NCBI GenBank assembly: GCA_964016885.1
Contig: OZ024742.1
Span: forward strand, 123,814,001-123,878,000
Origin: Eledone cirrhosa
Lineage: Eukaryota
Direction of reading: 5' to 3'
DNA: 64,000 bases
The notes beneath the pieces are model-generated. The model was given only the letters and a program-made list of their open reading frames with translations. It made no database searches and was not told the DNA's origin. Made by a program: the position numbers and the translations under genes. Every line of letters begins with the position of its first letter. The first letter of the stretch is position 1. Shown here one piece after another: positions 3,951 to 63,970 of this stretch.

Positions 3951-5465
3951 TGAAAATACATATAGAATATAGATAGAATATTTCGTTGAAAATAACATCA
4001 GTGTCAATATTTTATGGAGTTATACCGCTGGACTACAAAGAAAACATCTCTTACACATGTCTTCAATATTAGGGTAAAATATATAATTTGAAAGGATATT
4101 GAATATAAAATACAAAACCCAGTTAAAGTATTCAACGAAACCAATTCACAGAGACGGTATAATTTAACAGTGTGATAGAAACATGTGTTTAAAATATTAT
4201 CTTAAAATAGTCATATTTCTTGTGGCGCAATTGTGTCTGATTGTTATTGACTGAGTGGATCGGAGAATGCTATGAAATAGATATTTAGCAAGTAATTGTA
4301 TTTGATAACTGTGTGATGAGACACAACTTTTAAGCACTTTCAAGTAAATTGAAAATATAACGTCATAACATTTTATTTCATTCATAATGTCACTCACTCA
4401 CTTTGTTTTTAACTGTATATAAAATTACCTAAAAGTTACATAAAAATCGATAAAATAAAGAAATAGTTAACATATATATTCCTTCTAAAAATAATAATAA
4501 GGGAGCGACAAATGTTGAATTAATACCATGGGAAAGCGGGATATATACCATTAACCATAACAAGTGCATTTTAAATAAAAAGTATCCGGGTATGGATTCC
4601 GAAGTGATGATGTTAAAACGAGAAATTTAGAAATTTTTGAGTTTAAAAGTTTTCATTCAATCAAATCAAATGTTTCTCTCTCAATAATCTGTAAATAACT
4701 TCTCCTTTCTTGCCATACCTATTGGAGTTCAATACCCAAATAACATGTCTATATCGACATCCTATCTCTCTCTCTCCTTATATATATATATATATATATA
4801 TATATATATATGGTGGCTGCCAACTCGTTTTCGAGTACGGCCACTACGTTATATCCATGTACGAGAACTCCTACCGATGCGCTGAATGAGTGTGACATTT
4901 TAGTCCAGCCAGCGACTTGAAAACACTGGTACAAACACTACACTTGTGACAATTATTAACACATATTGCTGGGCCCATGGTACCATGTGACGACAAGTGC
5001 AGAGAGATCTCCAGATATAAAGCAATGCCTGTGCCGTGAAGCTTTTATAGTGATCAAAGGCACTGCACAAAGCCAGTCCCACTCTCTTAACCAAGATGAT
5101 ATTTACCAAAAAGAAGAACAAGTCAACATCATTGGATACCATCAGGGTTGCAGGTGTTATATCAGAGGTTTCCTTCACCTAGCATTCTGTCTTGACAAAG
5201 GCTAAGGGGTCATCTCTCCCGGATATATATACATACATACATATATATATATATATACTCATATATATATATATATATATATATATATATATATATATAT
5301 ATATATATATATATATATATTGTTATACTTTAGGAGGTCATGTTGCCAATAAGAAACACACGCACCAGTTGCTTTCACTTCAATTTATTATAATAAATTT
5401 ATAATTTTAGGAATTTATAAATTTCCGGTTGGTTGGTTCCATAACCAGATGGTTGTTTATATATT

Positions 5466-5508
5466 GTCAAAGTTCTTTCGTCACACATTCTGTGACCTCT
5501 TTAGTGAC
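5466..5508 (-). ncRNA. Type I hammerhead ribozyme, core-mutated (CUAAAGA), in a PLE 3' pseudo-LTR
   Basis: Minus: gtca-CTAAAGA-g-gtcaca gaatg tgtgac-GAAA gaac TT-tgac; stems I and II pair; lies downstream of the GIY-YIG ORF. Confidence 0.65.
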
Positions 5509-5849
5509 TGCAGATTCTTTTCTTTGTTTTTTGTGCCTCTCCCTTGTTCTGTCCTACGCCATTTTTTTTGTGTGTGTTGTGTGCTTAGTTTGCGCATGTG
5601 TTACATCCGGGTGTCTGTGTGTGTTTATATTCGTTTATTAATTTGTTTATTTACATGTTACTGGTTGGTTCTTTGTTCTATGTGCGTGTGTGTTTTCATT
5701 TTGTCCTTAATTGTAAGTTGTGATGTTGTTGTTCCACTAATGTTTTCTATTTAATTTTGGTTGTAATTCACTTATGTTTATTGCCTCTGTGATTTGTCTA
5801 AACATTGCGTCTTTTCTGTGTGTAGATTCTATTTTTATTTCTATGTTCT

Positions 5850-6380
5850 CTAACTTACTCTATGTTCTATTTTAGCATGTTGGTAGAGTACAGATGATTC
5901 TTTACTATCTTGAAGGTCTCGCCAGTGTACATTTATCCGTTCCCCTATACTACGAGCTATCTCACCTATGTACACTATATTGTTATCTCTACATTGTCCT
6001 TCAGTACATCTTATGCTATATACTACAATTCTAGTTTTACAGTTAATATGGGGGCTTAATTTACAGATTATACATTTCTTATCTATACAGGGAGGTCTTT
6101 GAAAAGGGTATGTCTTGTTAATAAGTGTTTTTATGGAGGTACCTGGTCTTTCTACTATCTTAATATTGAGTTTATGTTTATCTAGGGTCCTTCTGAATTT
6201 GTAAGCTAATTCACCTCTACGTGTTGTATCGATGAACATTACACTCTGGTATTTATTGCTATCATACCATGAGTTTATTCTATTAACCTTATTCCTAGTT
6301 CTTTCTATTCTATTCCAAAATTGACTCCTATACAAGGGGCATGTCCCATTTGTATCATTATTTACAATTTCTTCCCATTT
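5850..6380 (-). pseudogene. Penelope-like element, RT-EN linker plus GIY-YIG endonuclease fragment
   Basis: CIDKKCIIC..CKTRIVVYSIRC..YIGEIARSIGERINVH..SVLYQH; 5'-truncated. Confidence 0.88.
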
Positions 6381-6516
6381 GGTTCTCCCTCCCAAAACAT
6401 AACAATATCGGTTTCAACACACTCTCTCTATATATATATATATATACAAACTCTTTTCGCTCTTAACGTGCTGGATACCTTAATGTATTTCAGAGTTAAT
6501 AATAATAATATTATAA

Positions 6517-60352: not shown

Positions 60353-60403
60353 AGATTCTACAGGACAAGAACTGTTTCATTCTTTAGAAATCATCAGGAA
60401 TCT
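60353..60403 (-). ncRNA. Type I hammerhead with a full monomeric stem III
   Basis: Minus: agattc-CTGATGA-t ttct aa agaa t-GAAAcag ttcttgtc ctgTA-gaatct. Confidence 0.85.
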
Positions 60404-60859
60404 GGGTATCAAAAAATAAATATGCTATTTATAGGTCTCTACAAGTGGTAGGAGAGGGTGGGGAGTGGGGTGGGTGTAGGTCATTGGTTGACAGAAAAAG
60501 GAATTCATTAAAAGCTAATTCTACAAAGCTATAGTTTATTTTTATTATTATTAATTTTTGTTTTTAGAGTAACAAAGGCAGACAGAATTCTATAAACAGG
60601 TTCCGGATGGCATACGATTCCTTGTCATTAAGTTTCAGATGTCTATACGATCAGTGGGGGGTCAGTCATGGTAGATAGAATTAAAGGAAAGGGAGATTCT
60701 TTAAAATCTAAATTCATTAAGGTTCTACTAAGTGACAAAGGTTTAGAGAATTCTGTAGACAGATTCAAAATACTGAGTGCATATCTTACAATTATCTTCG
60801 AACTTCTCTTAAACTAATCAACTATATGCCAAAAATCAACAGACAAATTCACAAAAAAA

Positions 60860-62012
60860 CACACTCACTCACACACTCGCGCGCAACCATAAACACACAT
60901 ACACATACACATATACCCACATAAAAACACACACACATATATAAATATATCTATATACACATATATACACACACATATATATATATATATATATATACAT
61001 ACTTACACACATACATATATACACACACACACACACACACATATATATACACATATATATACACTCACACACATACATACATACACACAAATATACATGT
61101 GTATACATATACATATATCTACACATAGATATACGTATATACACATATATATATATATATATATATATATATATATATATATATATAAAATACAATACAT
61201 ATATATACACACACACACATATATATATATATATATATATATATATATATACATATACACACACATACACACAAACACACACACACACATATATATATAT
61301 ATATATATATATATATATATATATATATATATACACATATATATATACATAAACAAATACATACATATACAAACACACACACACACACACATATATATAA
61401 GGAAAAAGCACCATACATACATATATATATATATATATATACATATATATATATAGAGAGATACACCATTCATACATATATTCATATATATATACATATA
61501 TATATATATATATATATGTATATATATATATATATATATATATATATATATATATATACACATACACACATACACGCACACACATACATATATACACAAA
61601 TACGTACACATATATACACACACATATATATATATACATACATATATACATATATATATATATACACACACACATATATATACATATATATATATACACA
61701 TATACATACAAATATACATATACACATATATACACATACACACACACACAATATATATACACAAATATATACATATACACACACACACACATACACACAT
61801 ACATACATACATACATACATACATATACAAATATATATATATACATATATATATATATTTATATATACATATATATATATATATATATATACATATATAT
61901 ATATATATATATATATATATATATATATATATATATATATATATATATATATATATATATATATATATATATATATATATATATATATATATATATATAT
62001 ATATACATATAT
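60860..62012. repeat. (CA)n/(TA)n compound microsatellite
   Basis: Directly visible. Confidence 0.95.
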
Positions 62013-63970
62013 ATTGGTAAACGGAATAGAAAATGCTGACAAATTGTTCACAGTTGAAAAATGCTTTAATTAGGAATAAAAGAGTATTAGTGATTGTATG
62101 GGTTAGTATTCAGTTGTGGTTTTAAGTTTTTAAGTTTTTACCGGTTGCGCATTATCTAAATGCTTTTCAAAAATAATTTTGAGATAGTGTCCGTGCTGTT
62201 TGCTCCGATCTGATTAGTTTTGGGAATTCTACGTGTTTTTATGTTAAAAAAGTGGCTCCAGCGTTATTTTTGTGTTGCAAAAATTCTTGTGGTCAAAACA
62301 ATTTTGATTAGTCGGTAAAGGTCATGTGAATGTAGAAAGTTGATTTTGCGCCAAGACTGTTTTTATGTTAAAAAAGTGGCTCCAGCAAAAATTCTTGGTC
62401 AAAACAATTTTGATTGGTCGGTAGAGGTCATGTGAATAAAAAATTGGTTGACTGTCCATAGATCCCAAGTTAAAATACGGGAATACAGGAAAATACCACT
62501 GAGTGAACACATTGATACCTGTTCCGCCCAAAATCATCCCAACTTCAGAATCTTTCCCCTCTACAAATTTAAAGATAATGCCACCCACACCCAGCGCATC
62601 AGCAAGGAATCTTACTTCATTAACAAATACGGACCCCGTCTAAACACTTCTCCCTAAGACGAACCCACAACATACACACGTCAACATACATACCTACATC
62701 AGCACACATCTCTACCCACATATAAACACAATGACACACGTAAACACACATGCTCTATGGTGCAATACAAAGAAATATATGTGCATGTATATGTATGTAT
62801 ATATGTATATATATATATATATATGTAGTGAATATATGTATGTGTATATATATATAGTGAATATCATTTCACACCTTTTATTGTTAAGATTTTTGATGTT
62901 CTATTAAGAGAACCGATTTTACTGAAAAAATCGAATAATGTACACCATTTTACCAGGGGGAAAAAAATACTGGTCCACCCACACACACCCACACACACAC
63001 ACACATACACATATATATACACAAACACATACACACGCGTACATCAACATACAAAGAGACTTATACACACACACACACGCACTTCTCCGTATAAGACAAA
63101 AGCTGAAAAATATCTTTTGACATGCTAAAATACCCCCCATTGCTTTCAGACACATTCTTACTGACCATCCCTGCCACCACAAATTACTCTGCTATACACA
63201 CACACACACACACACTTATCTTTTGAGATGCTAAAATACCCCCCATTGCTTTCAGACACATTCTTACTGACGATCCCTACCACCACGAATCACTCTACTA
63301 CACACACACACACACACACACACACACACACACACACACACACACACACACACTTATCTTAATAGCCATTTGACACACATCGCTGCTGGTCATTGTCGCA
63401 GCATCGAACACCTTACTACTACTACTACACACACACACACACACACACACACACACACGCACACTCACACATACACACACACACACACATATCTGTTGTG
63501 AAAGAGTCATTTCTCAATCTTGGCGCAAAACCAATTTTATATTCACATGACCTCTACCGACCAATCAAAATTGTTTTGACCAAGAATTTTTGCTGGAGCT
63601 ACTTTTTAAACATAAAAACAGTCTTGGCGCAAAATCAACTTTTTACATTCACATGACCTCTACCGACTAATCAAAATTGTTTTGACCACAAGAATTTTTG
63701 CAACACAAAAATAACGCTGGAGCCACTTTTTTAACATAAAAACAGGTAGAATTCCCAAAACTAATCAGATCAGAGCAAACAGCACGGACACTCTATCTCA
63801 AAATTATTTTTGAAAAGCATTTAGATAATGCGCAACCGGTAAAAACTTAAAAACTTAAAATCACAACTGAATACTAACCCATACAATCATTAATACTCTT
63901 TTATTCCTAATTAAACCATTTTTCAACTGTGAACAATTTGTCAGCATTTTCTATTCCGTTTACCAATATA
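62012..63970 (+). mobile_element. Truncated PLE with ~440-bp inverted termini (62012-62449 / 63529-63970)
   Basis: Reverse-complement arms with an internal tandem duplication, enclosing an EN tail. Confidence 0.85.
62450..62657 (+). pseudogene. C-terminal half of a PLE GIY-YIG endonuclease
   Basis: TVHRSQVKIREYRKIPLSEHIDTC..FPLYK..RISKESYFINKYGPRLN. Confidence 0.8.

Follow-up and report, generated by a model that had tools for sequence, protein, structure and literature searches.

How does an insertion come to consist of two copies of one element in opposite orientation, each with the 3' end of its RNA sense pointing outwards into (TA)n? The question is raised by a 64,000-nucleotide stretch of the Eledone cirrhosa genome (NCBI GenBank assembly GCA_964016885.1, contig OZ024742.1, positions 123,814,001 to 123,878,000 of the forward strand), referred to here as the window, which is dense in (TA)n within an AT-rich genome of 3.0 Gb. 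An initial annotation had listed nine such inverted pairs and proposed that both ends of a break in palindromic (TA)n prime reverse transcription independently and that the two cDNAs are then joined, as a general mode shared by autonomous Penelope-like elements (PLEs) and non-coding retrozymes. It missed that the two arms are not equivalent: each family has two fixed 3' ends, which we call long and short, and nearly all insertions carry one of each. We consider it probable (roughly 0.6) that this pairing arises from a single PLE complex that cuts a TA target on both strands, with each of the two 3' ends then priming on the same RNA.

Opposed arms in the window

Arms were located by self-BLAST plus inspection of the sequence, and the ends of both arms were read out; one arm of 45 nt, at 5320-6420, was recognised by eye. 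Sense was taken from a hammerhead motif, located by pattern search, for the intervals starting at 13340, 25622, 30914, 36900 and 58059 (the motif of the 311-bp unit was read by hand), and from the direction of a GIY-YIG open reading frame (ORF) for those starting at 5320, 36900, 58059, 32272 and 62012; at 11777 only a partial hammerhead-like fold, its 3' half, was available to set it. In all nine intervals the left arm is antisense and the right arm is sense, i.e. the arms lie head-to-head with their 3' ends outward, as had been annotated. The arms were present at the annotated positions, but a one-sided tail had been omitted at several, and five limits needed correction (30914 to 30827, 58059 to 57890, 11927 to 12007, 37880 to 37911, and 63970 to ∼64008, past the window). 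The arms of 5320-6420 are indeed opposed, but the right one is only ∼45 nt long and lacks a ribozyme. Four further head-to-head cases start at 9414, 13084, 32079 and 40774; their families carry the ends of GIY-YIG ORFs upstream, in the sense that was assumed. The arms are listed below, with families labelled by window coordinate or unit length (F30, F311, F430) and pLTR standing for the pseudo-long terminal repeat of a PLE.

5321..6384, minus: short-end arm, 3' part of a PLE with a CX4CxxC linker and two Cys in the GIY-YIG core, Neptune-like by motif (ORF translation, sequence)
6385..6428, plus: opposite arm of ∼45 nt, shortened tail, without ribozyme
9414..9781, minus: long-end arm of a PLE pLTR, absent from the initial annotation (sense from the GIY-YIG ORF upstream in other copies)
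9785..10103, plus: its short-end partner, ∼41 nt shorter
11777..11850, minus: non-coding element, its short arm; hammerhead-like fold whose core reads CAGAAGA in fuller copies; the end lies outside (TA)n
11853..12007, plus: long-end arm with ∼80-nt tail, running into (TA)n
13084..13279, no strand assigned: long+short head-to-head pLTR stub of an abundant 'hairpin' PLE family
13341..15365, minus: array of 4.7 units of the 430-bp retrozyme with 4 hammerheads; its long end lies in (TA)n
15364..15808, plus: a single unit of the 430-bp retrozyme with its hammerhead at 15560; the short end lies ∼60 nt upstream of the long end
25624..27763, minus: 311-bp retrozyme array, 6.9 identical units, long end
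27762..29362, plus: 311-bp retrozyme array, 5.2 units, short end ∼33 nt upstream, junction microhomology of 2 nt
30827..31083, minus: long-end arm, pLTR of the putative Hydra-type autonomous PLE F30, 87-nt tail at 30827-30913, hammerhead at 31013
31084..31097, no strand assigned: 14-nt locally templated insert at the head-to-head junction of F30
31098..31266, plus: F30 short-end arm, hammerhead at 31167; both F30 arms end at the family's fixed 5' point
31360..31401, minus: F30 short-end fragment opposite this insertion across a TA run (convergent pair)
32079..32245, no strand assigned: long+short stub of the 'hairpin' PLE family
32267..33366, minus: short-end arm of a Hydra-like PLE
33367..36702, plus: its long-end arm, ORF remains at 33778-34620, ∼77-nt tail
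36903..37036, minus: short-end arm of a Neptune-like PLE with the 3' half of a hammerhead
37037..37911, plus: its long-end arm, GIY-YIG remains, hammerhead at 37630, ∼46-nt tail
40774..40958, no strand assigned: stub of the 'hairpin' PLE family, short+long, with approximate boundaries
57890..58163, minus: long-end arm with ∼169-nt tail
58164..60220, plus: short-end arm with remains of a GIY-YIG ORF and, at 60042, a hammerhead-like motif, ending in (TC)17 and then (TA)n
62012..62449, minus: PLE short-end arm
62450..64000, plus: its long-end arm, GIY-YIG C-terminus, tail continuing ∼8 nt beyond the window (to ∼64008) and then (TA)n

(TA)n adjoins both outer ends in seven of the nine annotated cases. 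A (TG)n/(TA)n run lies ∼25 nt away from the left end at 11777, and at 60220 the right end runs into (TC)17 before TA, so that the placing of outer ends in (TA)n held for all but these two.

One long end and one short end

Throughout the window, one arm of each case has a tail of ∼33-170 nt that is missing from its partner: the long arm ends at a fixed site and the short arm at a fixed site 33-170 nt upstream. We counted this pairing in three samples, namely (i) 800 kb of unselected DNA, window excluded, with 11 families and nested matches removed, (ii) 1.03 Mb of partly selected DNA (80 regions chosen on family motifs, the window and 200 kb of unselected DNA; 8 families, two of them related, which may count a few pairs twice) and (iii) 62 F30 insertions across 60 regions; numbers such as L032 or L061 denote genome regions outside the window. 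In unselected DNA there were 30 long+short pairs, one long+long and no short+short, with six having an unclassified end, i.e. 30 of the 31 classifiable pairs were long+short, and the sole long+long pair was an internal tandem unit whose outer end is short. The partly selected sample gave 109 long+short, 5 long+long (3 of them internal tandem pLTRs), 2 short+short and 6 other pairs, and the F30 sample 50 long+short, 1 short+short, 1 long+long and 10 one-sided or unresolved. F311 showed seven clean long+short pairs at nine evaluable loci, with one end ∼15 nt off the short site and one gapped locus among the ten; one F311 locus uses a different site pair, 31-35 nt apart. F430 was long+short wherever both ends were intact. 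A genome-wide count gave 2,070 short-end and 8,450 long-end matches, two numbers that are not comparable because the short end exists in two sequence forms.

Truly independent choice of site at each target end would give 50% mixed pairs, as against the 30 of 31 and 50 of 52 found. Both break ends probably do prime, as originally proposed, but these fractions, together with the shared variants described below, speak against their independence. Dual priming, in which each target end copies its own RNA, could be reconciled with the counts if an asymmetric dimer or a cis preference for one source locus imposed the long+short pairing and the shared variants; it has been proposed for L1 (PMC2837659), and we consider it unlikely here, although it is a serious alternative.

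The same ends bear on a wholly different explanation, namely that the pairs owe nothing to retrotransposition and are terminal inverted repeats like those of miniature inverted-repeat transposable elements, post-insertion inversions, chance neighbours or fold-back errors of long-read assembly. TA is the target of Tc1/mariner-type elements, and one junction is present at two loci, both of which would suit it. However, fixed long+short ends tied to RNA sense already largely refute it. The arms consist of PLE pLTRs or of ribozyme arrays, their inner junctions vary and their tails are one-sided, polarity tracks RNA sense, and the arms differ by 0-8%; moreover, among the loose ends listed for contigs of an independent run, at least six at the short site and at least one at the long site of the 311-bp unit are in TA. 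We regard this explanation as extremely improbable.

Polarity and (TA)n beyond the window

The initial annotation implied that divergent same-family pairs should outnumber convergent ones and that (TA)n should be enriched at the outer ends, and both were found. The F30 ribozyme motif has 9,855 exact genome matches, and among the first 100 listed there were 32 divergent, 1 convergent and 4 same-strand neighbours within 5 kb (∼0.9 pairs expected at random). The F430 motif gave 5 divergent and 0 convergent pairs among the first 64 of 100 listed matches, and F311 was minus-then-plus at 10 of 10 loci (first 100 of 378 matches). Unselected DNA contained 37 divergent and 7 convergent same-family pairs (p = 5e-6), and the partly selected sample 122 and 16, with a TA run between the members of all 16. 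Six of the seven convergent unselected pairs are separate insertions facing each other across a TA run, and the seventh is of non-terminal fragments; the window itself holds a convergent same-family pair, at 31227-31404, again with a TA run between. In unselected DNA, TA lay on the 3' side of 85 of 112 matches and on the 5' side of 9 of 112 (background 4%), and 119 of 128 F30 ends had TA. Target-site duplications (TSDs) are unreadable within (TA)n.

Identity of the elements

Six of the nine annotated cases are PLE ends and two are true tandem retrozymes. F30, the parent of 30827-31266, has fuller copies with an 808-aa frame (L047) containing a YRDDG reverse transcriptase (RT) motif and, at its C-terminus, a GIY-YIG endonuclease (EN) reading IYEC..TYFG. 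It bears the marks of the Hydra clade, i.e. DKT, a CxCX5C linker, no CCHH, and CxxC and CxH around E and N; where that clade has an RWK motif, F30 reads RWI. Its hammerhead lies in the pLTR, it inserts in (TA)n, and its tail corresponds to the leader downstream of the 5' pLTR. By these motifs F30 would be an autonomous PLE of the Hydra clade. Pfam and PDB searches with the F30 ORF returned no family or useful match. The Hydra-type motifs rule out Neptune, and the 808-aa RT and EN frame rules out a retrozyme. The families at 5320 and 36900 have a CX2-5CxxC linker and two Cys inside GIY-YIG, and these motifs, seen in EN fragments, make them Neptune-like, so that, judged by motif, the pairing rule holds in two PLE types or more. 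The insertion-unit features of EN-containing (EN+) PLEs are present, i.e. an inverted 5'-truncated copy and a tail at one side. A GAGTRCT-like word occurs at a similar place in the tails of several Hydra-like families (30827-30913, 32079-32160, 36625-36702, 17259-17340).

F311 and F430 consist of tandem units with one type I hammerhead each; their longest Met-started ORFs are 30 and 60 aa, and they gave no blastn match to the eight PLE families here. The mode proposed as common to autonomous PLEs and retrozymes thus survives as a shared footprint, but most of the annotated cases are autonomous PLE ends, including that at 30914, a Hydra-type pLTR. The identical multimers of F311 suggest a circular RNA, and no RNA run was among the runs listed as carrying the 311-bp unit. 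About half or more of the sampled words of this unit (27762-28400) occur in 20 runs with 17 organism codes from 16 studies, and two further runs contain a closed 311-nt loop, which may reflect a broad distribution or a recent expansion. For the abundant, non-coding 11777 family, whose core is a variant, no parent element was found; it has a hammerhead-shaped fold with CAGAAGA replacing CUGANGA (L153:7150-7235; window 11853-11900). An Rfam scan gave 350 matches at E up to 10, of which the 150 listed were all microsatellite or hairpin noise without a hammerhead, and minimum free energy folding of tails and ribozymes did not recover the hammerhead fold, which was read by hand.

Variants, nesting and junctions

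Of 64 F30 pairs, the 59 whose arms shared 80 sites or more were compared for variants. At 11 polymorphic sites the two arms agreed in 594 of 613 comparisons (393 expected); of the private alleles, 10 were present in both arms and 86 in one, and the arms differed by 0-8%. F311 had seven haplotypes over nine evaluable loci (L157 was excluded, its left arm being too short), and in nine of nine both arms and essentially all units were alike, which counts against separate RNAs copied at the two ends. The locus-wide variants of the 311-bp unit (25624-29362, L151-L159) are, in RNA sense, A>G in 4 of 7 cases, with one each of T>C, C>T and A>T; A-to-I editing of single RNA circles, subsequently fixed, might account for the A>G variants, but they are too few for a claim.

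BLAST against a single copy supplied the 5' positions of F30 arms, except for a few that were read manually. Among the 50 long+short F30 insertions, 25 had a short arm that extended further 5' by more than 20 nt, 8 had a long arm that did so, and 17 had arms of equal reach (p = 0.005); in unselected DNA the corresponding numbers were 13, 2 and 7, with 8 beyond the reference. At 10 of 30 loci chosen by the long end alone, the long arm stops within 103 nt. This early stopping of the long arm is expected of a trailing RT on one RNA, and is a further difficulty for dual priming. A single 5' point ends 36 of 100 F30 arms and is likely to be the RNA start (pLTR start site). Staggered and nested F30 pairs were alike in arm divergence (p = 0.43; 14 vs 24 loci with data), i.e. 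the stagger is not age-related.

These positions allow a published alternative to be weighed, namely self-priming or fold-back (Arkhipova 2013, PMC3846280), in which one cDNA or antisense RNA turns back on its own end and copies itself, the copy is joined to the second target end at a TA-like site, and later deletions make the arms unequal. Fold-back accounts for identical variants, symmetric palindromes, palindromic junction words and the TA-like bases after the short site, but demands that the short arm lie inside the long arm, which is broken in 25 of 50 F30 and 13 of 22 resolved unselected insertions; in 7 of the 50 the arms have no sequence in common. With half of the F30 insertions non-nested, simple fold-back fails unless precise later deletions are assumed; several short arms retain the exact fixed 5' end, and the stagger is equally common in the youngest copies. 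We consider it distinctly improbable. Shared variants together with non-nested arms would fit two inverted cDNAs of one RNA with both target strands priming.

As the initial annotation had inferred, the cDNAs are joined, head-to-head with microhomology or short inserts. The ten F311 junctions comprised six with 2-4 nt of microhomology, two with 1 nt and two with inserts; the 52 F30 junctions comprised 15 with at least 2 nt, 4 with 0-1 nt and 33 with apparent inserts, this last number being an upper bound because a nearby SNP stops exact extension. Microhomology of at least 2 nt was thus present in 6 of 8 insert-free F311 junctions and 15 of 19 for F30 (19% expected), and several F30 inserts were copied from adjoining sequence. 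Two F30 junctions captured foreign pieces without a TA spacer (L070:5049-5242, L067:7480-8503; the 5' end of another family or the 430-bp retrozyme), which are template jumps. Head-to-head joints between families (PLE/PLE, retrozyme/PLE) occur at L061:7765-8592, L078:811-1692, L078:2001-5105 and L199:2414-2657. In the 311-bp unit, 7 of 20 arm 5' ends lie at -184 to -207, which places them in the hammerhead core and 15-35 nt beyond the predicted cut (L151-L159). Window 5321-6428 and L208:2191-3430, ∼33 kb apart, have an identical head-to-head junction and are 92% alike, with different flanks and tail lengths; this inverted unit was duplicated or re-copied whole.

A model of priming at two sites

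The reading that we prefer, one PLE complex priming from both target strands on one RNA, draws on DNA sequence and on published in vitro work with a PLE protein. The long and short sites would be two internal RT start sites flanking the tail, and each target end would receive one of them. The RT at the short site would lead; the one at the long site would follow and either displace the first cDNA or stall behind it. Often both would run off at the 5' end of the RNA (probably where the pLTR starts) or go several times round a retrozyme RNA, and the two cDNA 3' ends would be joined by microhomology-mediated repair, yielding an inverted pLTR and a one-sided tail. The same two-arm footprint in two tandem retrozymes ties these to PLE enzymes, whose machinery they would use in trans. 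For the wider proposal, that EN+ PLEs normally integrate by two-site twin priming and that the same complex copies retrozyme circles into two-armed arrays, so that each retrozyme locus records one RNA circle, we see the chances as evenly balanced.

Several observations weigh against priming on one RNA. There are exceptions to the pairing rule, both short+short (L065, L063 and L086, the last lost to a filter and so missing from the 1.03 Mb counts) and long+long (L066, L068). The short+short F30 insertion at L065:3350-6500 lies within flanks that are themselves inverted repeats, and may be a secondary rearrangement. Short sites precede TA-like bases within the element, which end-joining after fold-back predicts likewise, and the 17 of 50 F30 insertions that are symmetric palindromes fit fold-back equally well. 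The haplotype result is the same whether the arms share one RNA molecule or one source locus. In four of the 59 F30 pairs (L032, L069, L072, L076) the arms are as divergent as unrelated copies, for which dual priming may account, and all four cross-family joints combine a long end with a short end, again in its favour; however, such joints were missing from the 800 kb of unselected DNA, and one of them (L078:811-1692) may be a nested insertion. Most arms overlap, unlike those of L1 twin priming, and in only 7 of 50 F30 insertions do they cover the RNA without overlapping, which obliges one to postulate strand displacement or a second RNA; under dual priming full overlap needs no displacement. 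Finally, one junction found at two loci means that not every copy is a fresh event.

Other repeats in the window

Three tail-only fragments lie between TA runs.

10264..10324, plus: tail-only fragment of the 430-bp retrozyme
37978..38040, minus: tail-only fragment of the 430-bp retrozyme
57715..57800, minus: tail-only fragment of the 11777 family

Decayed PLE copies for which no partner arm was established lie at 6850-9355 (minus), 19000-21200 (minus) and 15830-17153 (plus). A dispersed 200-bp SINE-like repeat (short interspersed element) stands outside the two-arm pattern, at 2106-2254, 6505-6697, 24965-25132, 39388-39659, 40382-40662, 49296-49633 and 56401-56606.

Comparison with known systems

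Polarity, one-sided tail and (TA)n bias are already published for PLEs, so the polarity was not a new rule. Arkhipova 2013 (PMC3846280) gives head-to-head as the most frequent PLE arrangement and proposes self-priming; Craig 2021 (PMC8557442) draws the head-to-head layout and describes an inverted 5'-truncated copy at the 5' end, a tail often at one end only and a (TA)n bias in Hydra, Naiad and Neptune. The insertion units of EN+ PLEs described in these two papers share with ours the head-to-head order, the outward 3' ends, the tail at one end only and partial tandems. In contrast, the tail here was counted on exactly one arm in nearly all insertions and measures 33-170 nt rather than the published 30-40, and the arms are in many cases non-nested, evidence against self-priming as published. 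The same layout occurs with ordinary 8-10 bp TSDs in Adineta (PMC3846280), so palindromic (TA)n is probably not its cause. Opposite-strand ribozyme pairs 100-700 bp apart were noted by Cervera 2014.

In vitro, the Poseidon_Ac protein (Frangieh 2024, PMC11167929) cuts and extends both strands of AT-rich targets, starts at two internal sites bounding the tail and is a predicted dimer; the main text of that paper does not link the two sites to the two ends of an insertion or to inverted copies, and the clades and the animal studied here are different. In L1 twin or dual priming (Meyer 2010, PMC2837659) a second strand likewise primes an inverted cDNA, giving antisense-left and sense-right arms with junction microhomology; there, as that account has it, the second site is opportunistic, the arms do not overlap and the outcome is a minority one, whereas here the sites are fixed, the arms mostly overlap and the outcome is usual. 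Our literature search, with subscription papers of 2002-2006 outside it, found no proposal of paired two-site priming for PLEs, and we did not find in print the long+short pairing with non-nested, same-variant arms common to retrozymes.

The metazoan non-LTR (non-long terminal repeat) retrozymes of Cervera and de la Pena 2020 (PMC7229834) are, like ours, non-coding tandem units with one type I hammerhead each, and PLEs have been proposed as their movers or parents both there and in a preprint (Li et al. 2026, 10.64898/2026.07.22.740005). In the accessible text of these two sources we found no two-armed arrays with PLE-type long+short ends. According to PMC7229834 the enzyme that moves animal retrozymes is still a hypothesis, and PMC8557442 leaves open how the inverted, tailed insertions of PLEs, the closest relatives of telomerase RT, are made. 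Polarity by itself matters little, being published, but the long+short rule makes both questions directly testable in an existing in vitro system, and its footprint in sequence can assign a non-coding repeat to PLE machinery.

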